A stretch of DNA of 64,000 nucleotides from Minisyncoccota bacterium (GCA_035708165.1 DASSSZ010000005.1:40719-104718); one strand, 5' to 3'; counted from the stretch's first letter, positions 8,597 through 46,765 are shown. The notes: a model not told the origin generated them from the letters alone. Translations and numbers: made by a program.

Positions 8597-8601
8597 CTTA
8601 T

Positions 8602-9797: not shown

Positions 9798-9882
9798 TAA
9801 CGGTTTCGAACTCATTCGAATTCAGATGCGCTGAAGCTGCATAATTTGCTTGAAGAGCTAAAAAGCACAGTACAATGAGAAC

Positions 9883-10278
9883 ATGTTGAAGAGGGACCCT
9901 AAAGTAATCTTTATATTGCTTGCAGTCATTTCCGCAGCCATTGCGTGCGTCGGGTTACTCGGAATGGACCTCATCGGACCCGCTCTCGTGTACGGGATGG
10001 GTGCCTTGGCGGTCGCATTCATTGCGCTTGCGCTGGTTCCGGGAGCGTTTTCTTGGTGGTGGAAATTCGCAATTTGGTATGTGCCTCTTGCTTGCTATCT
10101 TTTTGTCAGGATTATAGTGAGTGACATAAAACTGAAATCAATACCGATGTGGAATTTTTTTAATCCACCAGCATATATTCAATTTCTCTGGATTGCCGGC
10201 ACGTATTTATTTGTCAGCTGTATCTTAGTGGCCCTTTTCCAGCTATTACACCGGACTGAAGCATCGCACCGGAGCTGA
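9883..10278 (+). CDS. small membrane protein, paralog A2 (AFSWWWKFAIWYVPL motif)
   Basis: 131-aa ORF with clear protein-level similarity to 8602..9078. It is preceded by the same promoter-like block (ttgaag N15 tacaat). Confidence 0.55.
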   Translation: MLKRDPKVIFILLAVISAAIACVGLLGMDLIGPALVYGMGALAVAFIALALVPGAFSWWWKFAIWYVPLACYLFVRIIVSDIKLKSIPMWNFFNPPAYIQFLWIAGTYLFVSCILVALFQLLHRTEASHRS

Positions 10279-12617: not shown

Positions 12618-12718
12618 CAGTAGGCGCTTGCTGATCCTCTCTCGCCAATCATCCCATCCCATCCGCATCCACACGCCGTGCGTCTCGCTCGCACAGCGTA
12701 CGCGTATACTGGTAAGGA

Positions 12719-20516: not shown

Positions 20517-22226
20517 ATGAGTACGGCAGCTCCTGCGCGCGACCCCCTGATCAGGGAACTCCTCAAGGCGCGAGGGCTCGAGTCGGAGGAAGCGATCGAG
20601 CGATTCCTCAATCCGTCCTACGATGACGAGCTGCACGACCCGTTCCTCATGCGCGGCATGGAGGCGGCAGTCGAGCGTGTGCTCGCCGCGATGGAGAAGG
20701 GCGAGCGCATCGCCGTCTACGCCGATTTCGATTGCGACGGCGTGCCGGGCGCGGCAGTGCTGCTGCAGCTGTTCCAGCGGCTCGAGTACGATGCAGTCGA
20801 ATCGTACATCCCGCACCGCCATCACGAAGGCTACGGCCTGCATATCCCGGCACTCGACACGCTGAAGGAGCGCGGCGTCTCACTGGTGATCACGGTCGAC
20901 CTCGGCACGACCGCGATCGAGCCCGTCGCGCACGCCCGCGCGCTCGGCATCGACGTCATCGTCACCGACCACCACGAGCCGCCTGCGGAGCTCCCTGCGG
21001 CGCTCGCGATCCTTAATCCGAAGTTCGCGCCCTACCCCGACCCGAACCTCTGCGGCGCCGCGACCGCTTGGAAGCTCGCGTGCGCCATCCTTGCGAAAGG
21101 GAAGGAGCGCGGCCTCTCTGCATTCGCATCCGTGAACGAGGGCTGGGAGAAATGGCTGCTGGACCTCGTCGGCATCGCGACGATCGCCGACATGGTGCCG
21201 CTCGTGGGCGAGAACCGCGTGCTCGCGCGCTACGGCCTCATGGTGCTTCGGAAGACCCCGCGGCCCGGCATCGGCGCCTTGATGCGAGAGCTCTCTGCCG
21301 ACCAGCGCGAGCTCACCGAAGACGACATCGGCTTCCTCATCGGGCCGCGCATCAATGCCGCCTCGCGCATGGATGAGCCCGAGCTTGCGCTGCGGCTCCT
21401 CGCGACGCGGCATCCGGGCGAGGCGGCCGGTCTCGCGAAGCAGCTCGAGGGGCTCAATAAGAAGCGCAAAGGCGTCGTCGCGGCGATGACGCGCGAGATC
21501 AATAAGCGCCTGCGCGAACGCGAGATGCACGGCGCGGTGACGGTCCTCGGCGACCCGGAGTGGAAGCCGGCGCTCCTCGGGCTTGCCGCCAACGGCGCCT
21601 TGGAGACCGCGGGCGGCGTCGTGTGTGTCTGGGGGCGTGACGGCGCAGGGAACATCAAGGGGTCGTGCCGGTCGGATGGCAGCATCTCGGTGGTCGAGCT
21701 CTTCCGCGCGGCGGACGACATCCTCACGGAGTACGGCGGCCACCACGCAGCCGGCGGCTTCTCGGTGCCGCACGATGCGATCCATACGCTCGAGGAGGAG
21801 TTCGCACGGCGCGTTGCCGCGTTGCCGCGCGAGGAGCTCTCCCGGGCGATGACGGCGTACGCGGTGCCGCTTGCGCGCGTAGGGCAGGCGTTCTATGACG
21901 CGCTCGCGCAATTCGCGCCGTTCGGCATCGGCAATGAGAAGCCGCTGCTCGCGTTCTCGAATGTCACGATCGCTGCCATACGGCAATTCGGGAAGGCGCA
22001 TGAGCACCTCGAGCTCACGCTCGAGCAGGACGGCGCGCGCAGGAAGGCGGTGAAGTTCTTCGCGAAGCCTGCGGAGTTCTCGCTCGCCCCATCCGCAGGG
22101 GGAGTCGCCACCATCCTCGGAGAACTCGAGCGATCCGTCTTTCGCGGCTCTGTTGAGCTCCGATTGCGGCTCGTGGATATCGTCTCGCCCGGGGCACCCT
22201 GCCGTGCTACCATCGTTTCCATATGA
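20517..22226 (+). CDS. recJ: single-stranded-DNA-specific exonuclease RecJ (DHH/DHHA1)
   Basis: DHH motifs VYADFDCDGV, ITVDLG and VIVTDHHEPP are present. Length is 569 aa. Confidence 0.9.
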   Translation: MSTAAPARDPLIRELLKARGLESEEAIERFLNPSYDDELHDPFLMRGMEAAVERVLAAMEKGERIAVYADFDCDGVPGAAVLLQLFQRLEYDAVESYIPHRHHEGYGLHIPALDTLKERGVSLVITVDLGTTAIEPVAHARALGIDVIVTDHHEPPAELPAALAILNPKFAPYPDPNLCGAATAWKLACAILAKGKERGLSAFASVNEGWEKWLLDLVGIATIADMVPLVGENRVLARYGLMVLRKTPRPGIGALMRELSADQRELTEDDIGFLIGPRINAASRMDEPELALRLLATRHPGEAAGLAKQLEGLNKKRKGVVAAMTREINKRLREREMHGAVTVLGDPEWKPALLGLAANGALETAGGVVCVWGRDGAGNIKGSCRSDGSISVVELFRAADDILTEYGGHHAAGGFSVPHDAIHTLEEEFARRVAALPREELSRAMTAYAVPLARVGQAFYDALAQFAPFGIGNEKPLLAFSNVTIAAIRQFGKAHEHLELTLEQDGARRKAVKFFAKPAEFSLAPSAGGVATILGELERSVFRGSVELRLRLVDIVSPGAPCRATIVSI

Positions 22227-23416: not shown

Positions 23417-23743
23417 ATGACTGAAACAACTGAACGCAAGGTCTACCCCGGCATCGGCGGGTTCGTCGAGTTCATCCGCGAGCAAGGCGTCGTCGGGCTC
23501 GCGATCGGCTTCATCCTCGGCGGCGCGGTCAATACTGTCGTGCAGTCGCTCGTGAACAGCATCATCAATCCGCTCATCACTCTCGGCTTCGGCAGCATCA
23601 AGACGCTTTCGGCGTGGTCGGTCGGGCCGGTGGGCGTGGGTGCGTTCCTCTCCGCCCTCATCAATCTCATCATCATGGCCGCGGTGGTGTACTTCATCTT
23701 CAAAGGCTTGGGGCTCGACCACCTCGATAAGCCGAAGAAGTGA
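23417..23743 (+). CDS. mscL: large-conductance mechanosensitive channel
   Basis: FIREQGVVGLAIGFILGGAVNTVVQSLVNSIINPLI matches the MscL TM1 signature. Length is 108 aa. Confidence 0.85.
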   Translation: MTETTERKVYPGIGGFVEFIREQGVVGLAIGFILGGAVNTVVQSLVNSIINPLITLGFGSIKTLSAWSVGPVGVGAFLSALINLIIMAAVVYFIFKGLGLDHLDKPKK

Positions 23744-25368
23744 TGGACGAGGGCTTCGCGCGCGCCCCGGAGCGCGCGGGCAGGGAAGCAGCAGCGGTGT
23801 ACGGCGTGAGCGCGGCCATCCTGGCGGGGGTCGCGCTCCGTTCATTCGTGCCGTTCGGCGGGCCGGTCATGGCATGCGTGCTGCTTGCGGCTGGCTGCCT
23901 CGTGCTCGCATCCCTTGCCGCGCGCCGTAGAGCGTGGATGACGCTTGCGGCGGTTTTCCTCATCGCGCTCTCGCTGGGCATGTGGCGGATGGATGCGGCG
24001 TCGCATCTCTCCGATCCCGCCCTCGACCGCGCCCTCGGGCAGCAGGTGGCGCTCGAAGGGGTGATCAGCGCCGATGCCGACCGGCGCGAATCCTCGACCC
24101 TGCTCTCCGTGAGGGCGGACGCGCTCGTCATGGGAGGCGCGACAACGAGCATCTCAGCGACCGTACTCGCTGTCGCCGATCCCTACGCGCAGGGGGCGTA
24201 CGGGGACCGGGTCCGGATCGAAGGGCAGCTCGCCTTGCCGGAAGCGTTCGATACGGACACCGGCCGCCAGTTCGACTACCCCGGCTACCTCGCGGCGCAG
24301 GGGATCGCGTACGAGGTGATGGGCCCGGCGATAACGGTCATCTCGCATGGGCATGGCAATGGCATCATGGCCTGGCTGCTCGCGCTCAAGCATGGGTATC
24401 TCAGCGGGCTCACGCGCGCGCTGCCGTTGCCAGAGTCGGCGCTTGCGGGCGGCATCACGGCAGGGGACAAGCGCGCGCTCGGGAAGGAGCTGTTAGCTGA
24501 TTTCCGCACTGCCGGCATCGTGCACATCGTCGTCCTCTCGGGGTACAACGTGACGATCATCGCCGAGAGCGTGATGGCGATTCTCGGCTTCCTGCCGCGC
24601 GCGTTCGGCATCACGGCGGGCGCGCTCGGGATCGCGGCATTCGCCGCGATGACAGGCGGCAGCGCCTCGATCGTGCGCGCGAGCATCATGGCCGTGCTCG
24701 CGCTTGTCGCGCAGGCCATCCGCCGGCCGTATGCGATCCTGCGTGCGCTCGTGCTCACCGTAGTCGGCATGGTGCTCTGGAATCCGTTCATCCTCATCCA
24801 TGACCCGGGATTCCAGCTTTCGGTCATCGCGACGCTCGGCCTCATCTTCGTGACGCCGCTCCTCGTCGAACGCATGGGATGGCTCACGGAGCGCTTCGGC
24901 ATCCGCGAGATCGTCGGCGCGACGCTCGGGACGCAGCTCTCGGTGCTGCCGCTCCTCCTCTGGCAGATGGGGACCTTGAGCCTCGTCGCGCTGCCGGTCA
25001 ACGTCCTGGTCCTCGCGGTCGTGCCGGCGGCGATGCTGCTCTCGGCGCTCGCCGCGCTCGCAGGGATCCTGCTGCCGTGGCTCGCGCCGATGCTCGGGCT
25101 GCCGGCGTATGTGCTCCTTGCGTACATGCTCGCGATCGTGCACGCGAGCGTATCCGTGCCGTTCGCCGCGCTCGCGGTACCGCCATTCCCGGCTCCCGTC
25201 ATGCTGCTCTCCTACGCAGGGCTGATCGCGCTTCTCGTAGCGGTGCATCGTAAAAGGATCGCGGCCGCTTCCGTGAAAGAAGCGGCCGCGGCGCTATCCG
25301 GCGATCTTCTGACCGGGCTGTCGCCCGTGACTACCGGTGCGGAGACGGGCGGCGAGGCACAAGCGTGA
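23740..25368 (+). CDS. comEC: ComEC/Rec2 DNA-internalisation channel, membrane (DUF4131 + competence) domains only
   Basis: A multi-TM protein with VHIVVLSGYNVTIIAES...GGSASIVRASIMAVLALVA, the competence-domain signature. No MBL domain is present in this ORF. Confidence 0.85.
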   Translation: MMDEGFARAPERAGREAAAVYGVSAAILAGVALRSFVPFGGPVMACVLLAAGCLVLASLAARRRAWMTLAAVFLIALSLGMWRMDAASHLSDPALDRALGQQVALEGVISADADRRESSTLLSVRADALVMGGATTSISATVLAVADPYAQGAYGDRVRIEGQLALPEAFDTDTGRQFDYPGYLAAQGIAYEVMGPAITVISHGHGNGIMAWLLALKHGYLSGLTRALPLPESALAGGITAGDKRALGKELLADFRTAGIVHIVVLSGYNVTIIAESVMAILGFLPRAFGITAGALGIAAFAAMTGGSASIVRASIMAVLALVAQAIRRPYAILRALVLTVVGMVLWNPFILIHDPGFQLSVIATLGLIFVTPLLVERMGWLTERFGIREIVGATLGTQLSVLPLLLWQMGTLSLVALPVNVLVLAVVPAAMLLSALAALAGILLPWLAPMLGLPAYVLLAYMLAIVHASVSVPFAALAVPPFPAPVMLLSYAGLIALLVAVHRKRIAAASVKEAAAALSGDLLTGLSPVTTGAETGGEAQA

Positions 25369-34239: not shown

Positions 34240-34273
34240 GAGCCTCGGCATCTGCCGAGGCTCTCCTTTTTAT
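34240..34273 (+). terminator. rho-independent terminator (gagcctcggca tc tgccgaggctc + tcctttttat)
   Basis: 11-bp perfect stem plus T5. Confidence 0.7.
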
Positions 34274-34449: not shown

Positions 34450-36624
34450 ATGGCACGAGATTATCCGCTTGAGAAAGTCCGCAATTTCGGCATCGTCGCG
34501 CACGTGGATGCCGGCAAGACCACCACGTCCGAGCGCATCCTCTTCTATACGGGCATGAGCCACAAGATCGGCGAGGTGCACGAGGGCGGCACCATCACCG
34601 ACTGGATGGAGCAGGAGCGCGAGCGCGGGATCACCATCACCGCCGCTGCCATCACCTGCTTCTGGACGCCTACGTATGCGCGCCTCGGCGCGGACAACGT
34701 CGCGCAGGCGACCGACGGGCAGAACCCGAAGCGCCACCGCTTCAATATCATCGACACCCCGGGGCACATCGACTTCACCTCCGAGGTGCAGCGCTCGATG
34801 CGCGTCCTCGACGGCGCGATCGTGGTGTTCGACGGCGTGGCCGGCGTGGAGCCGCAGTCCGAGACTAACTGGCGCTACGCCGAAGAGGCGAGCGTGCCGC
34901 GGCTGTGCTTCATCAACAAGCTCGACCGAACCGGTGCATCCTTCGAGCGCTCCTTCAAGAGCATCCGCGAGCGCCTCTCGAAGAATGCGTACCGCATGCA
35001 GCTGCCGGTCGGCGAGGAAGCCAACTTCGACGGCGAGGTGGACCTGCTCACGCGCAAGATGTTCGTCAACTCAGGCGCGATGGGCGAGATCGTCACGATG
35101 GCCGACGCGCCGGAGTCCATGAAGGACGATATCGAGACGTACCGCGCCGAGCTGATCGAGAAGATCGTGGAGCAGGACGAGGCCGCGATGAACGCGTACC
35201 TCGAGGGCAATGAGCCTGATCTCGACACGCTGAAGGCGCTCCTGCGCAAGGCCGTGATCGCCAATGAGATCTTTCCGGTCTACTGCGGCGCGTCGCTGAA
35301 GAACCGCGGCGTGCAGCCGATCCTCGATGCGGTCATCGACTACCTGCCGTCCCCTCTGGACGTGCCGGCAGCGAAGGGCGTCAATCCGGACACCGGCGAG
35401 GAGGAGTTCCGCGAGGCATCTGACGAAGCGCCGTTCTCCGCGCTCGCGTTCAAGCTCCAGACGGACCCGTTCGTGGGGCAGCTCACGTTCATCCGCGTGT
35501 ACTCGGGCAAGCTCGAGAGCGGCGGCTATGTCTACGATGCCAATAACGGCAAGAAGGAGCGCGTCGGCCGCATCGTGCGCCTGCAGGCGGACAAGCGCGA
35601 GGAGATCAAGGAGATCTACGCAGGCGAGATCGCCGGCCTCGTGGGCATGAAGGAGGTGAAGATCGGCCATACGCTCTGCGACGAGACGCACCCGATCCAC
35701 CTCGAAGAGATCAATTTCAAGCAGCCGGTCATCTCGATGCGCATCGAGCCGAAGACCAAGGCGGACCAGGAGAAGATGGGCATCGCGCTCAACAAGCTCA
35801 CCGACGAGGACCCGACGCTGCGCGTGACGACTGACCCGGAGACGATGGAGACTATCCTCTCGGGCATGGGCGAGCTGCACCTCGAGATCATCGTGGATCG
35901 CATGAAGCGCGAGTTCGGCGTCGAAGCGACGACCGGCAAGCCGCAGGTGGCGTACCGCGAGACCATCCAGGGTACTGCCGATAAGGAGGTGAAGTACATC
36001 AAGCAGACGGGCGGTCGCGGCCAGTACGGCCACGTGAAGCTCCGCGTGAAGCCGCTCGAGCCGCTTGCCGAGGGCGCGAAGATCCCGAACAACGTCCATC
36101 GCGAGGACCACTTCGAGTTCATCAACAGCATCAAGGGCGGCGTCATCCCGGCTGAGTACATCCCGGCAGTAGAGAAGGGGGTGCGCGAGTCCCTGACCCG
36201 CGGCGTTCTCGCCGGCTTCCCGATCGTGGACGTCTCGGTCGAGCTCTACGACGGCTCGTATCACGAGGTGGACTCTTCGGAGATCGCCTTCAAGATCGCA
36301 GGCTCGCAGGCATTCCAGGAAGCGGCAGCGGCAGCGCGGCCGGTCCTCCTCGAGCCGATCATGAAGCTCGAGGTCGTGACGCCGGAGAAGTTCCTCGGCG
36401 ACGTGAACGGATCGATCAGCAGCAAGCGCGGCGTCGTGGAGCGCATGGACGCGCGCGGCAATGATACGGTGATCGACGCGAAGGTCCCGCTCTCCGAGCT
36501 CTTCGGCTACACCACGCAGCTGCGCTCGATGACGGAAGGCCGCGCGACGCCGGTCATGGAATTCGACCACTATGCGGTCGTCCCGAAGAACGTCGCGGAC
36601 GAAGTGATCGCTACGAAGCGATAA
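34450..36624 (+). CDS. fusA: elongation factor G
   Basis: NFGIVAHVDAGKTTTSERIL, DTPGHIDF and the full five-domain EF-G length. It is preceded by TTGCAA-17-TACTCT and a T5-containing leader. Confidence 0.95.
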   Translation: MARDYPLEKVRNFGIVAHVDAGKTTTSERILFYTGMSHKIGEVHEGGTITDWMEQERERGITITAAAITCFWTPTYARLGADNVAQATDGQNPKRHRFNIIDTPGHIDFTSEVQRSMRVLDGAIVVFDGVAGVEPQSETNWRYAEEASVPRLCFINKLDRTGASFERSFKSIRERLSKNAYRMQLPVGEEANFDGEVDLLTRKMFVNSGAMGEIVTMADAPESMKDDIETYRAELIEKIVEQDEAAMNAYLEGNEPDLDTLKALLRKAVIANEIFPVYCGASLKNRGVQPILDAVIDYLPSPLDVPAAKGVNPDTGEEEFREASDEAPFSALAFKLQTDPFVGQLTFIRVYSGKLESGGYVYDANNGKKERVGRIVRLQADKREEIKEIYAGEIAGLVGMKEVKIGHTLCDETHPIHLEEINFKQPVISMRIEPKTKADQEKMGIALNKLTDEDPTLRVTTDPETMETILSGMGELHLEIIVDRMKREFGVEATTGKPQVAYRETIQGTADKEVKYIKQTGGRGQYGHVKLRVKPLEPLAEGAKIPNNVHREDHFEFINSIKGGVIPAEYIPAVEKGVRESLTRGVLAGFPIVDVSVELYDGSYHEVDSSEIAFKIAGSQAFQEAAAAARPVLLEPIMKLEVVTPEKFLGDVNGSISSKRGVVERMDARGNDTVIDAKVPLSELFGYTTQLRSMTEGRATPVMEFDHYAVVPKNVADEVIATKR

Positions 36625-36644
36625 CCGATCGCACATGCATACCG

Positions 36645-36677
36645 AACGGCCGCGCAGATGCGCGGCCGTTCGTTATG
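36645..36677 (+). terminator. rho-independent terminator (aacggccgcgc agat gcgcggccgtt)
   Basis: 11-bp perfect stem after fusA stop. Confidence 0.65.
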
Positions 36678-36733
36678 CACAGCAAGCGGACGATGAGGAA
36701 AACGATAGGGTGTGCGTTTGCTATGATAGTGGC

Positions 36734-37174
36734 ATGCCGCCCGTCACTGAGATGCATGAGGAGAAGCCGCTCATGCGGCATGTGATCCAGCTCCTGATCG
36801 TACTTGTCGCGCTCATCTGCGCTGGCGTGCTCGCGTACCTCACGCAGCGCTATCTGTACAGCCGTACCGTCTCGGGCACTCCAGGCGCGACAGCCGACTA
36901 CTCGACGACCACTCCGGAGGAGCTGACGCTCCAGCAGAAGATGGAGGTGCTGCAATCGCTCGAGTCAGGCAAGGCATCGGGTACGGGCACGCAGGTCACG
37001 GGAGTAGCTTCCGGGACAGTGTCATCCGAGGGGAATGAGGCTCCCGCAAATGATGCGCGCACGCAGACGCTCGATCAGCTCGATGCGCAGCAGCAACAGC
37101 AGCAGGGCGACGATGGCGATGACTCCGGCATGAGCGCGCAAGAGAAGCTTAACCTCCTGAACTCGCTCCACTAA
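36734..37174 (+). CDS. membrane-anchored low-complexity protein with polyQ
   Basis: TM helix LLIVLVALICAGVLAYL. An S/T/G-rich region and QQQQQQ from a CAG/CAA tract at ~37088-37105 follow. Confidence 0.45.
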   Translation: MPPVTEMHEEKPLMRHVIQLLIVLVALICAGVLAYLTQRYLYSRTVSGTPGATADYSTTTPEELTLQQKMEVLQSLESGKASGTGTQVTGVASGTVSSEGNEAPANDARTQTLDQLDAQQQQQQGDDGDDSGMSAQEKLNLLNSLH

Positions 37175-37179
37175 TACGT

Positions 37180-38124
37180 ATGACGGCCCGTCGCACCAAG
37201 AAGAAATCGAACGAGCAATACGCGGTGCTGCTCAAGCAGCTGGGCGGTCTCATCGCGGTGACGATCCTGATCGCCGCTGCAACCGCGTTCATCTCCGCGA
37301 CGCCGCGCCACGCCTCCGCGACCGGCGACCCAGCCCTTTCCGGCTATCTATGGAGCGATACGATCGGCTGGATCAGCCTCAGCTGTACCAATACCGGCAC
37401 CTGCGGCACGCACAATTACGGCATGTCGATGGCCAGTTCCGGCGCACTTTCCGGCTATGGCTGGAGCGATAGCATCGGCTGGGTATCCGCCAATCCTTCC
37501 GATACCTCTGTCTGCGGCAGCCAGGCGACAGTGAGCACGAGCGGATCGGTCACCGGCTGGTTACGCGCGATTTCCGGCGGCACCTCGCAATCCGGCGGCT
37601 GGAACGGCTGCATCTCCCTCTCCGGGAGCGGCTATGGCGTGACATTCAATACGGCGAACGGCGCATTCGGCGGCTATGGCTGGGGTGACACGAATGTCGG
37701 CTGGGTGGATTTCTCCAAGGCGAGCGCTGTAGCATCGTGTACGCCGCAGAATATCTGCATCGGCAATAGCACGTACAATCAGAACGCCTATTGCCAGCAG
37801 ACGCTCATAAAGACGTGTGCTGGCACGTGCAGCAATGGCATCTGCTCGGAAGACCTGCCGCCGCCCACAGGAACGCTCATCGTCGCGCCGACCTTGGTGC
37901 GCGAAGGCATGAGCACGCAGGTCTCCTGGGATTCTGATGAGGCGTACGCCTGCCAGGTGACCGGCAGCAACGGCGATTCCTGGAGCGGTACGAGCGGGAC
38001 GAAGACGAGCAGTCCGATTACCGATACGGTCACGTATACGCTCTCATGCAAGAACGATGGCGGCAGCATGTCGGTCATCAAGAAGGTGAGTGTCTACCTC
38101 GTCCCGGTTTACCACGAGATCTGA
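37180..38124 (+). CDS. membrane-anchored surface protein with three LSGY-W-D-IGW repeats and a Cys-rich C-terminal domain
   Basis: The three repeats are LSGYLWSDTIGWISLS, LSGYGWSDSIGWVSAN and FGGYGWGDTNVGWVDFS. An N-terminal TM anchor and 14 Cys are present. Confidence 0.5.
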   Translation: MTARRTKKKSNEQYAVLLKQLGGLIAVTILIAAATAFISATPRHASATGDPALSGYLWSDTIGWISLSCTNTGTCGTHNYGMSMASSGALSGYGWSDSIGWVSANPSDTSVCGSQATVSTSGSVTGWLRAISGGTSQSGGWNGCISLSGSGYGVTFNTANGAFGGYGWGDTNVGWVDFSKASAVASCTPQNICIGNSTYNQNAYCQQTLIKTCAGTCSNGICSEDLPPPTGTLIVAPTLVREGMSTQVSWDSDEAYACQVTGSNGDSWSGTSGTKTSSPITDTVTYTLSCKNDGGSMSVIKKVSVYLVPVYHEI

Positions 38125-38292: not shown

Positions 38293-40089
38293 ATGTTGAA
38301 ATCTCACATGCCGACACGTCGTGAGTTCTTCCTCCTCGCATTCCTCTTCGCCTACACCATCGCCTTCAGCGGCGTCGTCCTCGCCTGGACTGGCCCGACT
38401 GCGAGCGCGCCATCGAACAACGTCTCTGCCCCGATCAATGTCGGCTCAACCGCTCAGATCAAGACGGGCGGGTTCTGGGCCTCTTCCATCGGTTCGGATT
38501 CCGGCTACTGCATCGGCAGCTCGTGCATCACGAGCTGGCCGTCCGCGAGCACTGATCTCTGGACTAAGAGCGGATCGAGCATCTATTACAACACTGGCAA
38601 CGTCGGCATCGGCGTCACGAGCCCGTACTTCGCGCTGCAAGTCGATCAACCGTCCGCGACAGGCGGCGGCATCGCAGTCTCCACGAGCGGCCAGGATGGT
38701 AGTGCGCTCAATGGTATCAGTAACAGATATTCATATACACAGACCTCAAGCGCCACCCGGTACCCGATCGGGAATGCCAATTCCATTTACGCTAAGATCG
38801 CTTCCGGCGTGACGAACTCCGGCTACGTGATGGGTATTGACGACACGATCCTGCGCAACTACGCCGCGAATAGTGCCGATGACGGCACCCTCGCGAGTCT
38901 CATCGGCGAGCGCATCCAGTATGGCCACTACAATGTCGATCCGGGTTCGACACCGGTGACGACCGCTGCGATCGGCATCGAGATCAATCCGCTCGCATAC
39001 ACCGGCTCGATCGGCACCATGTATGACCTTCTCCTCTCCGGATCGAGCGGGAGCGATTTCGGGACGCACTACGGCATCTACCAGTCAGGCTCAGCGTTGA
39101 ACTATTTCGGAGGGAAGGTCGGCATCGGTACCTCGAATCCCAGCGCCACCCTCGACGTCAACGGCACTGCAGTCATTGGCCGCCCTTCGGATTATTGGGC
39201 TACCAGCGGCTTTTATGGTGTCAGTGGCTTAGGTCAGCTCAGCACGGACGGCTCTTATGAGACCTCCCTCACTTCAAACGGCTATCGTAACTCGAGCGGC
39301 ACCTGGACCTCTTACGGTGCGAATGGCTACACTGGTGCCTCTCAGATCGCCCTCAGTCCGCAGGGCTACATCGACTTTCGTGCCGACACATCGAAAGCTT
39401 CAGGTAGTGCGACTCACCCTGACACGGTCATGCGGATTACGCCTGCGGGGAGTGTGGGAATTGGCACCGCTTCGCCTGGCACCAAGCTCACCGTCGCTGG
39501 TGAGATCACGTCCACGAACGCCAACGCATTCCGCATGGCCTACGGCAACTACGGCGCATTCTGGCGCAACGACGGCAGCAATACCTACTTCCTCCTCACG
39601 AACTCGGGCGATCAGTACGGCACGTGGAACTCCCTGCGGCCGCTTACCATCAACGATTCGAGCGGGGCAGTGACGGTCGGGACAGGCCTTACGGTGAGCG
39701 GGAATGTCTCCGCAAGCGCCTTCCTCTATACCTCCGACCAGTCCCTCAAGCACAATGTGCAGACGATTCCCGACGCGCTCTCGCTGGTCGAGAAGCTGCG
39801 TGGCGTGATGTTCAACTGGAACAGCGATGATCGTCCCGATATGGGTGTGATTGCGCAGGAGGTGCAGAAGGTCCTCCCGCAGCTCGTGCACACCGATGCG
39901 GCGACCGGACTCGAATCAGTCGAATACGGCAACTTCATCGGCATTTTCATCGAGGCGATCAAGCAGGTGCAAGGAGAGGTGACGAATCTTCAGCAAGAGA
40001 ATGCGCAATTGACGCAGCAGAATGCGCAGCTCACGCAGGAAGTGCAATCGCTCGATGCACGTGTTTCAGCGCTTGAAGCGGCACGGTAG
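38293..40089 (+). CDS. tail-fibre-like surface protein with C-terminal peptidase-S74-type intramolecular chaperone domain and terminal coiled-coil
   Basis: C-terminal SDQSLKHNVQTIPDALSLVEKLRGVMFNWNSDDRPDMGVIAQEVQKVLPQLVHTDAATGLESVEYGNFIGIFIEAIKQVQ matches the endosialidase/tail-spike chaperone domain pattern (SD..K.NI..l...L..l...Y.w......GviAQEv..v.PelV). An N-terminal TM anchor is present. Confidence 0.65.
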   Translation: MLKSHMPTRREFFLLAFLFAYTIAFSGVVLAWTGPTASAPSNNVSAPINVGSTAQIKTGGFWASSIGSDSGYCIGSSCITSWPSASTDLWTKSGSSIYYNTGNVGIGVTSPYFALQVDQPSATGGGIAVSTSGQDGSALNGISNRYSYTQTSSATRYPIGNANSIYAKIASGVTNSGYVMGIDDTILRNYAANSADDGTLASLIGERIQYGHYNVDPGSTPVTTAAIGIEINPLAYTGSIGTMYDLLLSGSSGSDFGTHYGIYQSGSALNYFGGKVGIGTSNPSATLDVNGTAVIGRPSDYWATSGFYGVSGLGQLSTDGSYETSLTSNGYRNSSGTWTSYGANGYTGASQIALSPQGYIDFRADTSKASGSATHPDTVMRITPAGSVGIGTASPGTKLTVAGEITSTNANAFRMAYGNYGAFWRNDGSNTYFLLTNSGDQYGTWNSLRPLTINDSSGAVTVGTGLTVSGNVSASAFLYTSDQSLKHNVQTIPDALSLVEKLRGVMFNWNSDDRPDMGVIAQEVQKVLPQLVHTDAATGLESVEYGNFIGIFIEAIKQVQGEVTNLQQENAQLTQQNAQLTQEVQSLDARVSALEAAR

Positions 40090-40099
40090 TTTAGGGGGC

Positions 40100-41317
40100 A
40101 TGATCGGTTTCGATTCTCAGCAACATGCCATATCACGACGATTCCTACGTCTGAGAGCGTGCAGGCTCTTTATCGGCAAGATTCTCTCCCTAGCCCTCAG
40201 TATCATCGTGGCGGTCGGCATACTGCCGATTCCTGCATCAGCGGCGAGCGGCTCGCAGTCCTACACGACTCCGGGGACGTATACGTTCACCATACCGGCG
40301 AACTACACGTCGCTCACCGTGCAGGTGTGGGGAGGTGGAGGCGGCGGAGGTGCATTGGGCGGCGGAGGCGGCGGCGCATACAATACGAAGACATTCGCTG
40401 CAGGCGCGTTGTCGGGATCGGTGACAGTGACGGTGGGTGCCGGCGGCGCCGGCATGCCGTTCGACTCGTACACGTCTGGCGGTGTGACTGGCGGCACGAG
40501 TAGCTTCGGATCGTATGTTGCTGCCTATGGCGGCGGAGGAGGAGGAGCCGGTTCGAATTCGGCGTATGCCGGTGCCGGCGGCGGCGGACAAAGCGCTGCG
40601 GGCCAGATCGGAGGGTACACGTCCGGCGGCGCGGGCGGCAGTCCGTCCGGCGGCGCGGGCGGCGCATCATCGATAGGTGGTAGCAAGCAGGCTCAGACGA
40701 CCGCTCAGCCTGGAGGTAATTCCGTATATGGCGGCGGAGGCGGTGGCGGCATAGCTATCAATTCTATCTCGAATGGCGCAGCGGGTGGCTCCTCGACGTA
40801 CGGCGGCGGAGGCGGCGGAGGCTTCGGGGGCGCCAATAGTTCGGGCGCAGGCGGCTCCTCGACCTACGGCGGAGGCGGTGGCGGGGCAGGGGAGGATAAC
40901 AACGGCGCGCACGCGGGTGCGGGTGGCTACTCGACGAGCGGCGGCGCTGGAGGTGCGGGCTGCAACCTGACCAGTTCTCTCGCTGTCATTTCTCCTGCGC
41001 AGTCCGGTTACTTCCCGGCGGGCGGAGGCGGAGGCGGATACAGGCAGAGCTGTGTCGGCGGCAATGGCGCAGGCGGCGAAGTCGTCATCACCTGGACCGC
41101 TTCGAACTGCCCGACGGCCATCACATCCGCAGCGGGCGGTAAGGGATTCCAGCTCCTCGCGAACATCGCGAATCGGCTGATCAGCGCCGTCGGCATCAAT
41201 ACATGCGTCACGAACACCACCGGCAACAGCTACTTCATCCCTTCGAATACCGCAGCTGAACTGCAGAGCTTCCTGAACGCGGCCTCCCGCCTCGGCGTGA
41301 CGGTGTTCACACCGTAG
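40100..41317 (+). CDS. secreted glycine-rich-domain protein (TFTIPANYTSLTVQVWGGGGGGG motif)
   Basis: RBS AGGGGG is present. A signal/anchor is followed by long G-rich repeats (GGGGGG.. SSTYGGGGGG). The C-terminal module NTTGNSYFIPSNTAAELQSFLN is shared with the N-terminus of 42280..43029. Confidence 0.55.
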   Translation: MIGFDSQQHAISRRFLRLRACRLFIGKILSLALSIIVAVGILPIPASAASGSQSYTTPGTYTFTIPANYTSLTVQVWGGGGGGGALGGGGGGAYNTKTFAAGALSGSVTVTVGAGGAGMPFDSYTSGGVTGGTSSFGSYVAAYGGGGGGAGSNSAYAGAGGGGQSAAGQIGGYTSGGAGGSPSGGAGGASSIGGSKQAQTTAQPGGNSVYGGGGGGGIAINSISNGAAGGSSTYGGGGGGGFGGANSSGAGGSSTYGGGGGGAGEDNNGAHAGAGGYSTSGGAGGAGCNLTSSLAVISPAQSGYFPAGGGGGGYRQSCVGGNGAGGEVVITWTASNCPTAITSAAGGKGFQLLANIANRLISAVGINTCVTNTTGNSYFIPSNTAAELQSFLNAASRLGVTVFTP

Positions 41318-41459
41318 CGAGTTACCCACAGGCACTCCCTGTCATCCCCTCAATGCGGTGTCGCGGTCGGCTCTCGATGAGCATCTAGTGCTGCACGTCT
41401 GCTCATTCCTGTGCACATTCCGCATCAATCGACCGGAAATAGGCGGGTATACTAGAGAC

Positions 41460-42299
41460 ATGATGCTCGTGGTTCCTGAGGTGGGCGATGTATCGCGATG
41501 TGCCGGCGCACGCGCATCGCGCGGCGAAATTCGCACGGAGCTGCTGGCGTTTGTCGGGCTGTGCATCGCGCTCTGCCTCGTCGGTCTAGCATACTATGCC
41601 TCCCAGTATCGGCAGGGGGCATCGGCGGCCGCATCTTCTGCGGCTTCCCATGATACGACCGCGCTGGCGCTCTCGTCGACTGAAGTGAGCACCTCCTCAT
41701 TGCCGGCGACCTTCGCGCCTGCGAGCGACACGGTGACCCTCTACGAATTCGATTCATTCGATCCATCCTGCACCTCGTGCGCAGGCGTGCATGCAGCGGT
41801 CATGGCGGCGGTCGCGTCCCTGCCGAGCAGCGCGGTGTATCATTTCCGCGCGTACCCGATCGCACGTCCGCTCTCGGACGATGCGTCCTCGACGCCAGTG
41901 TTCGATCCGCGCGACATCCTGGGGCTGTGCATCGCCTCGGCCACACAGGCGCAAGGTGATGGTGCGATCCTCGCGTATGCCGCAGCTGCATACGCGAGCG
42001 CGAGCGCGACGCCTGATGCGCTTCTGAGCGCGATCCCTGCTGCGGATCGCGATGCGGCGGAGAACTGCGTCGCCGCGATGCCCGAGAACGACATGCCGAT
42101 CACCGATGTGCTCTCACGGTACCAGTACGACCAGGTGCCGAGCGCGCCCGCCGTATTCATCCAGATTCCGGGCGTACCTGATCCGATTTCGATCGGCGCT
42201 GACCCGAAGAACATCGCGGCCGTGCTGCAGTCGCTGGTCGCCGACCCGGCCGGTTTCGCCGCATCGCTGAGGGAGCAATATGAGAAACGTGCGCAGTAG
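41460..42299 (+). CDS. membrane-anchored thioredoxin-fold protein, DsbA-like (CxxC = CTSC), tentative
   Basis: VTLYEFDSFDPSCTSCAGVHAAV resembles the DsbA active-site context (..vEFfsy.CphC). A TM anchor is present. A TATACT -10 lies upstream. Confidence 0.4.
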   Translation: MMLVVPEVGDVSRCAGARASRGEIRTELLAFVGLCIALCLVGLAYYASQYRQGASAAASSAASHDTTALALSSTEVSTSSLPATFAPASDTVTLYEFDSFDPSCTSCAGVHAAVMAAVASLPSSAVYHFRAYPIARPLSDDASSTPVFDPRDILGLCIASATQAQGDGAILAYAAAAYASASATPDALLSAIPAADRDAAENCVAAMPENDMPITDVLSRYQYDQVPSAPAVFIQIPGVPDPISIGADPKNIAAVLQSLVADPAGFAASLREQYEKRAQ

Positions 42300-43029
42300 G
42301 AAATGGCAGCTGTTCTGCCTGTGCGCGGCAGGCGCCGTGCTCGTGCTTGGCGCGCGCGAGGCGTTCGCCATCAATGCGATCTCGGAAGGATTCAAGGTGA
42401 ACGGCACAAGCCAGCAGATCAGCGCCTATAGCAGCTGCTACGAAGCGAATTCGACGAACGGCGCCGCGTATTTCTTTCCGTCGAAGACCTCGACCGAGTT
42501 CAGTTCGTTCGTGAACCACAAGCCCGCAGCCGTGAACCTGAACGCATGTCAGATGCTGACCGGCGGGAAACATACGGCTGTCGACTGCTCCGGAGCCGGG
42601 GGATCGACATTCGACGGCCTCTGCAAATTCGCCGGATCGGTCTGTCCGTCAAGCTGGACAGCTTCCGGCTACGTCGACTGGCCGAGCTTCTCGTGTTCTG
42701 CGGTCTCTTCGTATGTGTGCGATGCGGGCACGCAGTACACCGGACCGACGAGCTGCAGCGGCGGGAGCAGCTTCTCTTCTTCTGGCATCACGCCTTCCTG
42801 CTCGTATGGTTATACCTCGAGCTCGTACGGAGCGTACACCACGTACGGATGGACCAACCCTCCATGCGGGTATCAAGACGTCTGCGGCGGGTTCCCGTAT
42901 AGCTGCACGCTTCAATATGTGTGCCCGGCCCCTGTATACGGGCCCATCACGGCGTATGGAGAGATTTGCTCGCCAGTGTCGGAGACCTGCAGAGAGCCAT
43001 ATGCTCCAAGCGCGATTTATTGCGAATAG
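42280..43029 (+). CDS. secreted Cys-rich protein (about 25 Cys)
   Basis: Signal peptide is present. The N-terminal module AAYFFPSKTSTEFSSFVN is similar to the C-terminus of 40100..41317. The C-terminal half is Cys/Tyr/Ser/Gly-rich. Confidence 0.5.
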   Translation: MRNVRSRKWQLFCLCAAGAVLVLGAREAFAINAISEGFKVNGTSQQISAYSSCYEANSTNGAAYFFPSKTSTEFSSFVNHKPAAVNLNACQMLTGGKHTAVDCSGAGGSTFDGLCKFAGSVCPSSWTASGYVDWPSFSCSAVSSYVCDAGTQYTGPTSCSGGSSFSSSGITPSCSYGYTSSSYGAYTTYGWTNPPCGYQDVCGGFPYSCTLQYVCPAPVYGPITAYGEICSPVSETCREPYAPSAIYCE

Positions 43030-43096
43030 ATCTCACCGAGATACGTTATCAACAAGCGGGCGCCGGCGAATGGCCGCCGTGGTGTAATCTAATGGC

Positions 43097-44902
43097 ATGA
43101 ATAGTAACGGTAATGATGGCATGCACTCATTGCGCCGCTCCCTCGCCGGGCTTTCAGGCCGCAGCAACCTCTTCCTCCTCGCATTCCTCTTCGCCTACAC
43201 CATCGCCTTCAGCGGCGTCGTCCTCGCCTGGACCGGCCCCACGGCAAGCGCGCCATCGAACAACGTCTCTGCGCCGGTCAATGTCGGTGCGACGAGCCAA
43301 ATCAAAACCGGCGGCTTCTGGGCTTCTTCTATCGGCTCCGACAATGGCTACTGCATCGGTAGCTCGTGCATCACCTCGTGGCCCTCTGGCCTTGGCGGCT
43401 CGGGATCGACGAACTATGTCCCGAAGTTCACTGCCGGCACGACCTTGGGCAATTCGCTTATCTCCGACAATGGTTCGACGGTCGTCGTGCACGGTACTGG
43501 CAACACCACGACCTGGGCATTCGAAGGCTTGGGTGGCTATGAAGGCGTCTACGGCTCTGGGACCAACATCGGCCTCTATGGCGCCACGTCGGGCAGTACC
43601 GGCGGCTGGGCGATCGAAGGCGTCGGCAGCAACACCTCGAGCAATGGCATCTACGGGCAGGGAACCAATGTCGCGACGGAAGCATACAACCCGACGAGCG
43701 GCAGCCGTGTCTATCTTGGCTACGGGAACTATGGCATCTACTCCAGTGCGCCGACTAACTACTTCAGCGGCAACGTCGGGATCGGCGATTCCTCGCCCTC
43801 GACCGATCTCGACGTGGCGGGCGATATCTGGACGTCAGCGGCAGGCAGCGGCCGCAGCTCGTTCTATGACCTGGCTGGTGGCAAGATCGCCGCAGGCTCG
43901 AGCCTCTATTCGTACGGCGACATCTGCACCGGCAACAACAGCGGCGCGTGCACTGGTACGGGCGGCGTCGTGATCGGCAATACGAATGCATCCGCTGCGG
44001 TGAACGTCACGAATGCCGGTACTATCCGCACGAACGGAGAAGTGCAATCCGCTTCAGCGAACGCCTTCCGCATGGTCTACGGCAACTACGGCGCCTTCTG
44101 GCGCAATGACGGTTCGAATACTTACTTCCTTCTCACCAATTCCGGTGATCAATATGGCACCTACAATTCGTTGCGTCCGCTCTGGATTAATGATGCGAAT
44201 GGGAGTGTCGGGATCGGTACGTCGTTGAGTGTGCCGAGCATCAAATTCTCTGATGGTACGACGCAGACGACGGCAGCGACCGGAGGGAATTCGCATGCGC
44301 AGATATTCACCTCAAGCGGTACCTGGACGAAGCCTTCCGGAGTCAATGTGGTTATCGCGCAATGCTGGGGCGGTGGAGGTGGTGGACTGTCCGATCCGAG
44401 TTATCACCAGGTTGATGCTGGCGGTGGTGGCGGAGGATATCTTGAAATGACGTTTGCTGCGTCTCAAATCGCCTCATCAGTAGCGGTTACGGTGGGCGGC
44501 GGCGGTGCGGGGACAACCTCGAGTGGACAGACTGCCTATGCCGGCAATGGTGGTACGTCAAGTTTCGGACCCTATCTCTCCGTGCAGGGCGGGAGCGGTG
44601 CTTACCACATCACTAATAATAGCGCATGGACTCCTGGGGCTGGTGGTGGCGGCGGGCTCTATGGTCCGGGGAATGGCGGATCCGGTGCATCTGGCCAGTC
44701 GGGCTCGACGATGGCAGTTGGGGCAGGGGCTTCGGCATTCGGTGGTGGTGGCGGTGGTGGTGGGACCACGGTTTCTAGCGGAGGAACATCTCAGAATGGA
44801 GGAGCCGGCGGAGCGGACGGTTATGCTGGTGCTGCACCAGGCGGCGGCGGAGGTGGCGGTGCATCGGGTGCCCGCGGGGAGTGCATCATTTACTCCTACT
44901 AG
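43097..44902 (+). CDS. tail-fibre-like surface protein, mosaic paralog of 38293..40089 with C-terminal glycine-rich domain (TWTKPSGVNVVIAQCWGGGGGG motif)
   Basis: The N-terminal ~85 aa are near-identical to 38293 gene, and a shared central block is ANAFRM.YGNYGAFWRNDGSNTYFLLTNSGDQYGT. The C-terminus is G-rich like 40100 gene. Confidence 0.6.
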   Translation: MNSNGNDGMHSLRRSLAGLSGRSNLFLLAFLFAYTIAFSGVVLAWTGPTASAPSNNVSAPVNVGATSQIKTGGFWASSIGSDNGYCIGSSCITSWPSGLGGSGSTNYVPKFTAGTTLGNSLISDNGSTVVVHGTGNTTTWAFEGLGGYEGVYGSGTNIGLYGATSGSTGGWAIEGVGSNTSSNGIYGQGTNVATEAYNPTSGSRVYLGYGNYGIYSSAPTNYFSGNVGIGDSSPSTDLDVAGDIWTSAAGSGRSSFYDLAGGKIAAGSSLYSYGDICTGNNSGACTGTGGVVIGNTNASAAVNVTNAGTIRTNGEVQSASANAFRMVYGNYGAFWRNDGSNTYFLLTNSGDQYGTYNSLRPLWINDANGSVGIGTSLSVPSIKFSDGTTQTTAATGGNSHAQIFTSSGTWTKPSGVNVVIAQCWGGGGGGLSDPSYHQVDAGGGGGGYLEMTFAASQIASSVAVTVGGGGAGTTSSGQTAYAGNGGTSSFGPYLSVQGGSGAYHITNNSAWTPGAGGGGGLYGPGNGGSGASGQSGSTMAVGAGASAFGGGGGGGGTTVSSGGTSQNGGAGGADGYAGAAPGGGGGGGASGARGECIIYSY

Positions 44903-45185: not shown

Positions 45186-46382
45186 ATGGCAGCAGATTTC
45201 GACCGTTCGAAGCCGCACGTCAACGTCGGCACCATCGGCCACGTCGACCACGGCAAGACCACGCTGACCGCCGCGATCCTCCACGTCATCAGCATGATGG
45301 GCGAGGGCTACGGCGCGAACGTGAAGGGTGTCGACCAGATCGACAACGCCCCGGAGGAGCGCGAGCGCGGCATCACCATCGCGCTTTCGCACAACGAGTA
45401 CTGGACGCCGACCCGCCACTACGCGCACATCGATGCGCCGGGTCACGCGGACTATATCAAGAACATGATCACGGGTGCCGCCCAGATGGACGGCGCGATC
45501 CTCGTGGTCGCCGCGACTGACGGCGCCATGCCGCAGACGCGCGAGCACATCCTCTTGGCTCGCCAGGTCGGCGTGCCGAAGATCATCGTCTTCCTCAACA
45601 AGGTGGACATGGTCGACGACGCCGACATGATCGACCTCGTGGAAGAGGAGATCCGCGATCTCCTCGGGAAGCAGGAGTTCGACAAGGACTGCCCTGTCAT
45701 CCGCGGCTCGGGCCTCAAGGCGCTCGAGGCATCGAGCATCGATGACGAGTGGGCGCAGAAGGTCGCCGAGCTCGTGAAGACGATGGATGAGTACATCCCG
45801 ACTCCGGAGCGCGACACGGCCAAGCCGTTCCTCATGCCGATCGAGGACATCTTCTCGATCGAGGGCCGCGGCACCGTCGTGACCGGCCGCATCGAGCGCG
45901 GCGTCGTGAAGACGGGCGAGGAAGTCGAGATCGTGGGCATCAAGCCGACGACCAAGACGACCGTGACCGGCATCGAGATGTTCAACAAGCAGCTCTCGGA
46001 GGGGCAGGCTGGCGACAACGCCGGCATCCTCCTGCGCGGCACCAAGAAGGAGGACGTGCATCGCGGCCAGGTCCTGGCAGCGACCGGCTCCGTCAAGCCG
46101 CACACCGAGTTCGAGGCCGAGGTCTACGTCCTCTCGAAGGATGAGGGCGGCCGCCACACCCCGTTCTTCAGCGGGTACAAGCCGCAGTTCTACCTGCGCA
46201 CCACGGACGTGACCGGCGAGGTGACCCTGGCCGATGGCGTCGAGATGGTCATGCCGGGCGACACCGCGACCTTCAAGGTCAAGCTCGTGGGCCCGGTGGC
46301 GCTTGAGGAGCAGCAGCGCTTCGCGATCCGCGAAGGCGGCCGCACCGTCGGCGCCGGCGTCATCACCAAGATCGTCGCCTAA
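45186..46382 (+). CDS. tuf: elongation factor Tu
   Basis: [20 protein letters not shown]... Full-length EF-Tu. Promoter TTGACG-17-TAGTAT lies at 44983-45011. The track ORF 45135.. is an extension. Confidence 0.95.
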
Positions 46383-46414
46383 CCCTTCTCTCTAGCAGCT
46401 CACTCGCATCACCC

Positions 46415-46765
46415 ATGGCAACCGCACCCAAGACCGCACGCAAAGCAGCCGCTTCGAGCGGGCCGCGCCTGCGCATCACTGTCCGCGCGTACGAGCACCG
46501 GGTGCTGGATGCATCCGTGAAGCAGATCATCGACACGGCGGCGCGCTATTCCGCGACCGTCGTCGGGCCGGTGCCGCTGCCGACGGACATCAGGAAGTAC
46601 ACCGTGAACCGCTCGACTTTCGTCCACAAGGACGCACGAGAACAGTTCGAGATGCGCGTGCACAAGCGCCTGATCGACATCCTCAACCCCGAGGCAAAGG
46701 TGATCGAAGCGCTCTCTAACATCGATCTCCCGTCCGGTGTCTCCATCGACGTGAAGATGATGTAA
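46415..46765 (+). CDS. rpsJ: 30S ribosomal protein S10
   Basis: LRITVRAYEHRVLD...VVGPVPLPT...HKDAREQFEMRVHKRLIDI conserved uS10. Confidence 0.95.
   Translation: MATAPKTARKAAASSGPRLRITVRAYEHRVLDASVKQIIDTAARYSATVVGPVPLPTDIRKYTVNRSTFVHKDAREQFEMRVHKRLIDILNPEAKVIEALSNIDLPSGVSIDVKMM

Follow-up and report, generated by a model that had tools for sequence, protein, structure and literature searches.

Tail-fibre-like paralogues in a fusA–tuf island of Patescibacteria share the N-terminal module of a very large family and, probably, a homogenised 5' end

Introduction

Bdellovibrio bacteriovorus carries 21 chromosomal paralogues encoding mosaic adhesive trimer (MAT) fibres, in which a signal peptide leads into a conserved N-terminal domain, proposed to attach to the predator surface, and then into a trimeric β-helix and variable tips (Caulton et al. 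2024, PMC10769870). Their capping loops have the form V-G-x-x-x-x-P-x-x-x-L (consensus V-G-G/N-π-x-x-P-x-x-x-L), they fall into S74 (SDxxxK autoprotease) and non-S74 groups, their cell-surface location and binding of prey glycans have been shown, and 'tip swapping' has been proposed as their route of diversification; the S74 domain, as summarised in the same work, aids trimer folding and then cleaves itself (PMC10769870). The MAT family appears to be the closest known analogue of two genes, here called A and B, that lie between fusA and tuf in a 64 kb window (the whole stretch of DNA analysed, part of a 178,732-nt contig in the metagenome-assembled genome, MAG, of an ultra-small Candidatus Paceibacterota bacterium). 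A first-pass annotation of the window had read A and B as tail-fibre-like paralogues built around two conserved recombination handles with swapped receptor-binding ends. We regard it as probable that they are instead anciently diverged members of a very large, almost entirely Patescibacteria family of secreted fibres assembled from phage-tail-fibre parts, held at the cell surface with host-binding tips, and that only their 5' ends have been homogenised.

Like the MAT genes, A and B are chromosomal, non-phage genes, and S74 (A, with SDQSLK) and non-S74 (B, with a Gly_rich_2 tip) fibres occur in one genome. Their loops, VGIGxxxPxxxL (three in A and one in B), are closely related to the published MAT consensus and one residue longer. 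The order of a putative signal peptide directly before a conserved N-terminal domain is as in MAT, but the N-terminal module has no BLAST similarity to the Bdellovibrionota matches at hand, a comparison outside which the B. bacteriovorus MAT sequences themselves lie. The locus further differs from MAT in its monoderm-like host from the Candidate Phyla Radiation (CPR), its recurring fusA–tuf island with a partner gene (orf2), its Gp34_trimer knob and its homogenised 5' DNA.

Parallels to other systems are more partial. With the long tail fibres T4 gp34 and Mu gpS, A and B share the knob domain and an architecture in which the attachment end is constant and the distal end variable, but no virion genes accompany them, and a Sec signal peptide and the CPR module stand in place of the N-terminal region that attaches phage fibres to the virion. 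Phage Mu varies gpS by Gin-mediated inversion, whereas no invertase was found among the island genes and no inverted repeats flank the variable segment. Gene A ends, like the fibres and spikes with an S74 domain (K1F endosialidase, T5 pb1; PF13884), in S74 with an SDxxxK motif; it differs from them in an additional 45-residue coiled coil after S74, and gene B has no S74. The Neisseria pilE/pilS genes are a multigene surface family whose conserved 5' ends are kept alike by gene conversion. A and B resemble them as clustered paralogues in which a constant 5' coding region, with few synonymous differences, adjoins divergent 3' parts, but unlike them are complete genes with their own starts, with no silent cassettes in the window and no evident programmed switching.

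Results and Discussion

Genes A and B share two blocks of unequal divergence

A dot plot of A against B (k=12) contained two diagonals only, at offsets of +4843 and +4537, which confirms the two collinear blocks of the first-pass annotation; the spacing of the blocks differs by 306 nt between the genes. A repeat search returned the blocks as 217 nt at 86% identity (38327-38543 vs 43170-43386) and 164 nt at 75% (39520-39683 vs 44057-44220), and in 30-nt sliding windows their edges were abrupt, with the identity before, between and after them at the background level of ~25-35%. Aligned in codon register, block 1 (38323-38547 vs 43166-43390) is 83.6% identical in DNA (0.91/0.95/0.65 at the three codon positions), with 47 identical codons and 21 synonymous and 7 non-synonymous differences, and block 2 (39514-39687 vs 44051-44224) is 71.3% identical (0.83/0.84/0.47), with 22 identical codons and 25 synonymous and 11 non-synonymous differences. 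BLASTP of A against B recovered block 1 with 70/88 identities (E 3e-42) and gave a second high-scoring segment pair centred on ANAFRM.YGNYGAFWRNDGSNTYFLLTNSGDQYGT. Both blocks are real and far above chance. The annotation had given the block peptides correctly, as judged by BLASTP, with block coordinates 10-20 nt off; its figure of 85-90% identity holds for block 1 (84-86%) but not for block 2, which reaches only 71-75%. That the genes differ completely between the blocks is true of the DNA and not of the protein, in which a third motif, the loop 'NYFxGxVGIGxSxPSxxLDVxG', is common to A (274-306) and B (211-243). Further partial copies were sought in the 64-kb window, to which copy and gene counts in this work refer; tblastn found none, and a motif pattern gave 2 matches, those in A and B, against 0 expected.

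In both genes block 2 is the Pfam domain Gp34_trimer (PF21446), which aligns over 84 residues with Mu gpS 267-350 (PDB 5YVQ) and also with the C-terminal trimerisation domain of T4 gp34 (4UXE, 5NXF). The knobs of A and B are 78.5% identical in amino acid sequence, and their identity to Escherichia coli prophage tail-fibre proteins is 71-74%; block 2 is a protein domain that evolves slowly wherever it occurs and not a private recombination handle. The tail-fibre structural domains are distributed as Gp34_trimer in A and B, S74 in A, and Gly_rich_2 in B and in orf4, another gene of the island. Together with hits to PHROG tail-fibre families, these domains bear out the description of A and B as tail-fibre-like mosaics, and the divergent ends are as had been described, Peptidase_S74 plus a coiled coil in A and Gly_rich_2 in B. 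Although Gly_rich_2 matches both orf4 and the Gly-rich end of B, BLASTP gave no alignment between the two, so an origin of the B tip from within the island could not be shown.

Synonymous sites distinguish a recent 5' segment from older, constrained sequence

The numbers of non-synonymous (dN) and synonymous (dS) substitutions per site were calculated by the Nei-Gojobori method, and amino-acid-identical degenerate codons were scored for identity against the expectation from codon usage alone. In the 5' part of block 1 (38329-38427) dN is 0 and dS 0.17, with 28/32 such codons identical against 14.7 expected, whereas the 3' part (38428-38544) has a dN of 0.10 and a dS of 1.83, with 16/33 identical against 16.2 expected, and block 2 (39514-39687) has a dN of 0.18 and a dS of 2.26, with 20/45 identical against 21.8 expected. 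The step in dS inside block 1, from 0.17 to 1.83, is thus tenfold (Fisher p=0.0015). A 64-nt run without mismatch (38327-38390 = 43170-43233) encodes the hydrophobic (h-) region of the signal peptide, which is the most identical part of A and B (98%); the chance of 20 identical codons arising from codon usage is 5e-7. The longest identical run in block 2 is 18 nt. With dS saturated both in block 2 and across the 3' half of block 1, these segments are old and kept alike by selection on the protein, and only the first ~100 nt of block 1, comprising the signal peptide and the first mature codons, appear to share recent ancestry. The divergence along the genes is therefore not uniform, as a simple old duplication had been expected to make it, and the mosaic reading stands. 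The proposal of recombination handles survives for the first ~100 nt, where the perfect repeat is of sufficient length for homologous recombination, but not for block 2 or the 3' half of block 1.

The same pattern recurs elsewhere. Among 30 within-genome paralogue pairs from other Patescibacteria, DNA identity in the 60 nt before the codon of the first mature residue, a Trp, averages 0.75, compared with 0.38 between genomes; over the mature motif that follows it is 0.73 compared with 0.62, and background is reached by +180 to +300 nt. Signal peptides are thus genome-specific yet common to paralogues, a pattern indicative of concerted evolution or of a resident 5' end having been reused repeatedly. 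Homogenisation of 5' ends seems to be at work also in the tandem arrays of other Patescibacteria, and we infer that gene conversion is the process behind the 5' identity of A and B.

That receptor-binding ends had been swapped between handles is borne out only in that the tips differ. There is one handle rather than two, and its copies are direct repeats, so that crossing-over between them would lead to the loss or duplication of 4.8 kb and not to an exchange of ends. Domain scans, which covered the seven island genes and part of the remaining window, found no recombinase or reverse transcriptase in the island, and the search for inverted repeats around the variable segment returned one chance-level pair only (43251-43280 / 46210-46239, 77% complementary), which is unrelated to the blocks. 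Shufflon, diversity-generating retroelement and invertase readings were rejected, there being only direct repeats and no recombinase among the island genes. A metagenome scan for genes encoding the same h-region (FLLAFLFAYTIAFSGVVLAW) gave 0 matches. Elsewhere the window encodes a type IV pilus ATPase (PilB-like, T2SSE) and platform protein (PilC-like, T2SSF), RecJ and ComEC (10884..13936, 20517..22226, 23740..25368), which suggests that the organism probably has pili and DNA uptake.

Block 1 is the N-terminal module of a very large protein family

Block 1 encodes an N-terminal module (N-module) that always occupies residues ~1-90 of the proteins that carry it and consists of a basic n-region, a hydrophobic region of ~20 residues, a near-invariant Ala-Trp and the mature motif W-T-G-P-[TS]-x-x-[AP]-P-x-x-N-[VI]-x-A-P-[IV]-N-V-G-x-x-x-Q-x-K-x-G. 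Across the alignments A, W, P, P, N, P, K and G are invariant or at least 90% conserved; in particular, Ala at -1 and Trp at +1 are invariant in a 14-sequence alignment (A1) and at least 90% conserved in the larger alignments A3 and A4. Both A and B match W-[TV]-G-P-[TS]-x-x-[AP]-P-x-x-N-x-x-x-P-[IV]-N after a signal peptide ending x-A and are among the top profile matches. In the subfamily of A and B the mature motif is followed by GSDSGYCIGxSCIxxWP, a motif that recurs as an internal shaft repeat in one 3,523-aa relative.

With the N-module profile and clustering at 50% identity, a HMMER scan identified 7,871 clusters when the threshold was E≤1e-3 and 1,714 when it was E≤1e-10, in proteins of 95 to 3,523 aa, and no Pfam or NCBIfam model covering the module was found. 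The C-termini of 116 scanned members include S74 (28), Shufflon_N (7), Big_7 (4), Gly_rich_2 (4) and Gp34_trimer (2) and also T4 gp36, Hint, dockerin, fn3 and others. One constant N-terminus is joined in this family to many C-termini. The common N-terminal 'anchor' block with differing ends that had been recognised in A and B is supported.

Two observations concern the distal parts of other members. Shufflon_N, the constant region of PilV (profile positions 209-288), lies just upstream of or near S74 in P0013 and P0023, a match that links the fibre shafts to the R64 thin-pilus adhesin. In locus L040, two N-module proteins (7065..9288) have Pfam GP38 hits (T-even phage adhesin), a sign that there may be Gly-rich tips similar to the receptor-binding domain of gp38.

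The family centres on Patescibacteria and recurs between fusA and tuf

A pattern scan of one genome per species, based on a 6-sequence alignment, identified 37 N-module loci, 25 of which are labelled as Patescibacteria lineages (Kaiserbacteria, Paceibacteria, Yonathbacteria, Taylorbacteria, Portnoybacteria, Minisyncoccia and 'Saccharibacteria'-labelled MAGs), the remainder being generic or unlabelled MAGs and one labelled Roseiarcus. The labels Roseiarcus, Xanthobacteraceae and Hyphomicrobium may reflect mis-binning or real spread beyond the CPR. A search of 2.9 million viral contigs (IMG/VR) yielded 0 confirmed relatives of the N-module; the motif likewise had 0 matches there, whereas as a positive control it gave 31 matches in 25/37 genome loci and 2 in the window.

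Synteny was counted over these loci, which were found through the N-module itself, and over four additional loci found through orf2. In at least 14 of the 37 the N-module genes have fusA and/or tuf-rpsJ as neighbours, and 25 have an adjacent orf2 homologue. A variable island of genes for secreted or membrane proteins lies between fusA and tuf in L007, L011, L012, L014, L016, L019, L025, L028 and L041, in lineages as differently named as Kaiserbacteria, Yonathbacteria and several generically labelled MAGs. The minimal form (L012) consists of fusA, a small transmembrane (TM) protein, orf2, one N-module gene, tuf and rpsJ. Elsewhere the number of N-module genes per genome ranges from two to at least six, including an array of at least six after tuf-rpsJ in L005. 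A small TM protein follows fusA, in the position of orf1 here, in L012 and L019, and in L011 one precedes the second orf2-like gene. The N-module gene directly before tuf often ends in Gly_rich_2 (L011, L019), as gene B does, and one has a Hint domain.

When the search was started from orf2 homologues, N-module genes were adjacent in 3/4 loci. The gene order is rpsL-rpsG-fusA-orf2-three N-module genes-tuf in L041, while L040 has three N-module genes beside orf2 near rplJ-rplL. In L038 (10001..12058) a pair made up of orf2 and an N-module/S74 gene lies between two integrase genes and a Replic_Relax gene, and the pair of orf2 and fibre may be mobile in some lineages. The orf2 proteins form a Patescibacteria family of ~300 aa without a Pfam model that almost always adjoins N-module fibre genes. 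They begin with a TM helix, carry three GYxWSDxIGW repeats within a β-rich domain, contain many conserved Cys residues and a stretch rich in Cys, and end in an Ig/PKD-like domain. AlphaFold2 (AF2) modelled the TM helix, the β-domain and the Ig-like domain with a predicted local distance difference test score (pLDDT) of 90.

A model for the fibres, and the alternatives

In the model that we favour, A and B would be exported by a Sec-type signal peptide ending in Ala and cut before the invariant Trp. The mature protein would begin with WTGPTxxPPxxNVxAPINVGxxxQxKxG and continue with the GYCIGxxCIxxWP disulfide loop, a shaft with VGIGxxxPxxxL loops, the Gp34_trimer knob and a variable tip. In gene A the tip would lie ahead of the S74 chaperone, which is predicted to trimerise the fibre and then to cleave itself at SDQSLK, and in gene B the glycine-rich domain would be the tip. 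The constant N-module may retain the fibre on the cell surface, perhaps through the membrane-anchored orf2 protein, the obvious candidate for a dock, and the variable C-termini would bind different ligands on the organisms to which the bacterium, presumably an episymbiont, attaches. The first ~100 nt would have been homogenised or exchanged recently, by homologous recombination or gene conversion between paralogues.

Several points weigh against this model. The hydrophobic segment of 20 residues could remain membrane-embedded and act as an anchor, cleavage being read from the conserved A|W only, and the 5' identity could stem from a recent partial duplication rather than from gene conversion. 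An AF2 monomer of the N-module (23-sequence alignment) was poor, with a pLDDT of 58 and confidence in the signal helix only. Finally, a few family members come from Proteobacteria-labelled MAGs (L017, P0048), and in L039 (10001..10975) orf2 stands alone in an integrase/AlpA/HicAB islet on a contig that otherwise looks proteobacterial; either the taxonomic restriction is not absolute or some bins are contaminated.

The same fibres could be anchored differently if the hydrophobic segment were left uncleaved as a type II membrane anchor, with WTGPT as a membrane-proximal stalk and no docking on orf2. The h-region of ~20 residues is of TM length, AF2 gives a helix of 21 residues, and the co-encoded orf1 and orf2 are likewise single-TM proteins. 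However, monoderm-type signal peptides are often this long, and Ala at -1, Trp at +1 and a small or aliphatic residue at -3 are highly conserved among the family members aligned and listed, as a signal-peptidase I site would lead one to expect; we consider this arrangement rather unlikely. A far more radical alternative, that A and B are phage tail-fibre genes of a prophage or tailocin remnant with no cellular role, would account for the strong PHROG and Pfam tail-fibre hits, for a GC content at third codon positions (GC3) in the island (0.52-0.86) below that of the housekeeping flanks (0.83-0.93), and for the related pair of orf2 and S74 gene between integrases in L038. Yet the island lacks any capsid, terminase, sheath, tube, baseplate, tail or integrase gene and sits between fusA and tuf, the same island occupies the same chromosomal site across differently named lineages, and both proteins begin with a Sec signal peptide and with an N-module that is absent from the viral contigs and found almost only in Patescibacteria. 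Phage-gene status is not supported for these genes of a bacterial chromosome, and we consider a remnant extremely improbable.

The remaining alternatives concern how A and B came to be alike. A plain old duplication without recombination, after which only constrained domains are still recognisable, fits the saturated dS of block 2 and of the 3' half of block 1 and the weak residual likeness in the third motif. It is highly unlikely in view of the tenfold jump of dS within block 1, of C-termini that are unrelated Pfam domains, of a block spacing that differs by 306 nt, and of the h-region: in secreted proteins this is usually the segment under least constraint, and it is not conserved between genomes, yet it is where A and B are most identical. 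At the other extreme, both blocks could be the DNA handles through which an active cassette system exchanges receptor-binding ends between the two genes, in the manner of a shufflon or tail-fibre cassette. The perfect 64-nt repeat with its low dS, the many C-termini joined to the N-module across the family, the homogenised 5' ends in paralogue arrays of other genomes, and comEC and recJ in the window, which imply a capacity for DNA uptake and recombination, would all agree with such a system. Against it, block 2 shows a saturated dS, identical codons at the codon-usage expectation and a longest run of only 18 nt, and is nearly as close to E. coli prophage fibres as to its paralogue; a single crossover between the direct repeats would produce a deletion or duplication; and neither a recombinase among the island genes nor silent cassettes in the window (tblastn) were found, the sole inverted pair being weak and off the blocks. 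We judge an active cassette system to be unlikely, and return to anciently diverged secreted fibres with homogenised 5' ends as the probable account of A and B.

Gene content of the island and its surroundings

The island consists of seven + strand genes between fusA and tuf-rpsJ, beyond which ORF (open reading frame) translations place rplC, rplD and rplB (Table 1). Sequence inspection found an N-terminal hydrophobic or signal segment in 7/7 of them, and all appear to encode secreted or membrane proteins. Gene A is a 100% match to a Candidatus Paceibacterota database protein (P0001) that NCBI names 'tail fiber domain-containing protein'. The short intergenic gaps across the island suggest co-transcription with fusA and tuf; no convincing terminator was found within the island by a promoter and terminator scan, whose result was not above background, and Rfam and tRNA scans of the whole window were empty. 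The low extreme of GC3, 0.52, is reached in the Gly-rich end of B, a heterogeneity that fits separate histories for separate parts but is not diagnostic.

Table 1. Coordinates of the genes and sequence features of the fusA–tuf island, numbered from the first nucleotide of the window.
Feature	Coordinates	Strand	Evidence
fusA (EF-G), left flank	34450..36624	+	ORF translation; homologues with 67-75% aa identity flank similar islands in related loci
orf1, small protein, one TM helix, Q/D-rich tail	36635..37174	+	sequence; synteny; no Pfam hit
orf2 (VFL98_02955), conserved partner	37180..38124	+	TM helix, β-rich domain, Ig/PKD-like domain
gene A, S74-type fibre, 598 aa	38293..40089 (NCBI start; ORF opens 38248)	+	P0001; Pfam and PHROG hits
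gene A, putative signal peptide, 31 aa, ...GVVLA|W	38293..38385	+	cleavage predicted from conserved residues
block 1 copy A, N-module: h-region, WTGPTASAPSNNVSAPINVG...QIKTGG, GYCIGSSCITSWP putative disulfide-loop motif	38323..38547	+	repeat search, profile
64-nt perfect run, copy A	38327..38390	+	= 43170-43233; homogenised tract probably reaches ~38427
block 2 copy A, Gp34_trimer knob	39466..39687	+	PF21446 E 5e-28; PDB Mu gpS 5yvq, T4 gp34 4uxe/5nxf
gene A, Peptidase_S74, predicted chaperone/autoprotease	39733..39891	+	PF13884 E 2e-15; SDQSLK at 39733-39750 (SDxxxK regex)
gene A, C-terminal coiled coil (QQENAQLTQQNAQLTQEVQSL...)	39943..40083	+	sequence; weak hits, e.g. DivIC, ZapB
orf4, predicted secreted Gly_rich_2 protein	40100..41317 (ORF opens 40022)	+	PF21722 E 3e-11; phrog_863; signal-like N-terminus
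orf5, TM protein with CTSC (CxxC) motif	41358..42299	+	sequence; no Pfam or PDB hit
orf6, predicted secreted Cys-rich protein	42280..43029	+	sequence; no Pfam hit
gene B (VFL98_02980), non-S74 fibre, Gly-rich tip, 593 aa	43121..44902 (ORF opens 43097)	+	P0003; Pfam
block 1 copy B, N-module; putative signal peptide 43121-43228	43166..43390	+	repeat search, alignment
block 2 copy B, Gp34_trimer knob	43985..44224	+	PF21446 E 7e-28; PDB 5yvq E 3e-24
gene B, Gly_rich_2 C-terminal domain, putative binding tip	44318..44890	+	PF21722 E 4e-10
tuf (EF-Tu) and rpsJ, right flank	45186..46765	+	ORF translations

Among the other island genes, orf5 contains 'YEFDSFDPSCTSCAGVH', a CxxC motif in a DsbA/thioredoxin-like context amid Cys-rich secreted proteins; Pfam and PDB sequence searches gave no support for a DsbA-like enzyme, and this assignment was rejected. 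A short motif is common to the C-terminus of orf4 (41230..41300, 'NSYFIPSNTAAELQSFLNAAS') and the N-terminal part of orf6 (42440..42510, 'AAYFFPSKTSTEFSSFVNHKP'). Just upstream of fusA lies a strong terminator-like hairpin (34240..34263; 10 bp with 8 GC pairs and a T-run), and, in contrast to L041, fusA is not directly preceded here by rpsL and rpsG. Farther away, the stretch 8000..10000 of the window has a GC content of 0.45-0.50 compared with ~0.65 elsewhere; it is preceded by the gene for a protein of 1,066 aa with an α/β-hydrolase (LCAT-like) hit, has pilB ~1.2 kb downstream, and contains two small ORFs (8602..9078, 9186..9668) for proteins with multiple TM segments and no Pfam hit.

Implications

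The 'tail fiber domain-containing' label of NCBI and the existence in Bdellovibrio of cellular fibres of such a build are already known. A search of the literature on tail-fibre-like proteins in Patescibacteria/Parcubacteria returned nothing specific; the literature searched mentioned neither the Patescibacteria-specific N-module family with its size, nor the recurrent island between or next to fusA and tuf, nor the orf2 partner, nor the homogenised 5' ends. The locus also provides a clean example of how synonymous sites separate sequence conserved because it recombines from sequence conserved because it is constrained.

A broader speculation, to which we give limited credence, is that the fusA–tuf island is a widespread host-recognition locus of Patescibacteria, in which orf2 would be the dock, interchangeable fibres would plug in through the WTGPT N-module, and the repertoire would be renewed by recombination, with the 5' modules as homology arms and, at a larger scale, the ultra-conserved fusA and tuf flanks, aided by natural competence (comEC in the window). 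If true, this would be a cellular counterpart of the swapping of phage receptor-binding proteins, and it would set the hosts to which an episymbiont can attach.

Beyond the type IV pili of Saccharibacteria, little is known about the ways in which CPR/Patescibacteria recognise their hosts and stay attached to them. The locus gives candidate determinants of host specificity and an easily located genomic landmark for the comparison of MAGs and, if the favoured reading of A and B holds, phage fibre modules would have been recruited for cell-cell recognition on at least two occasions by bacteria that live on other bacteria.

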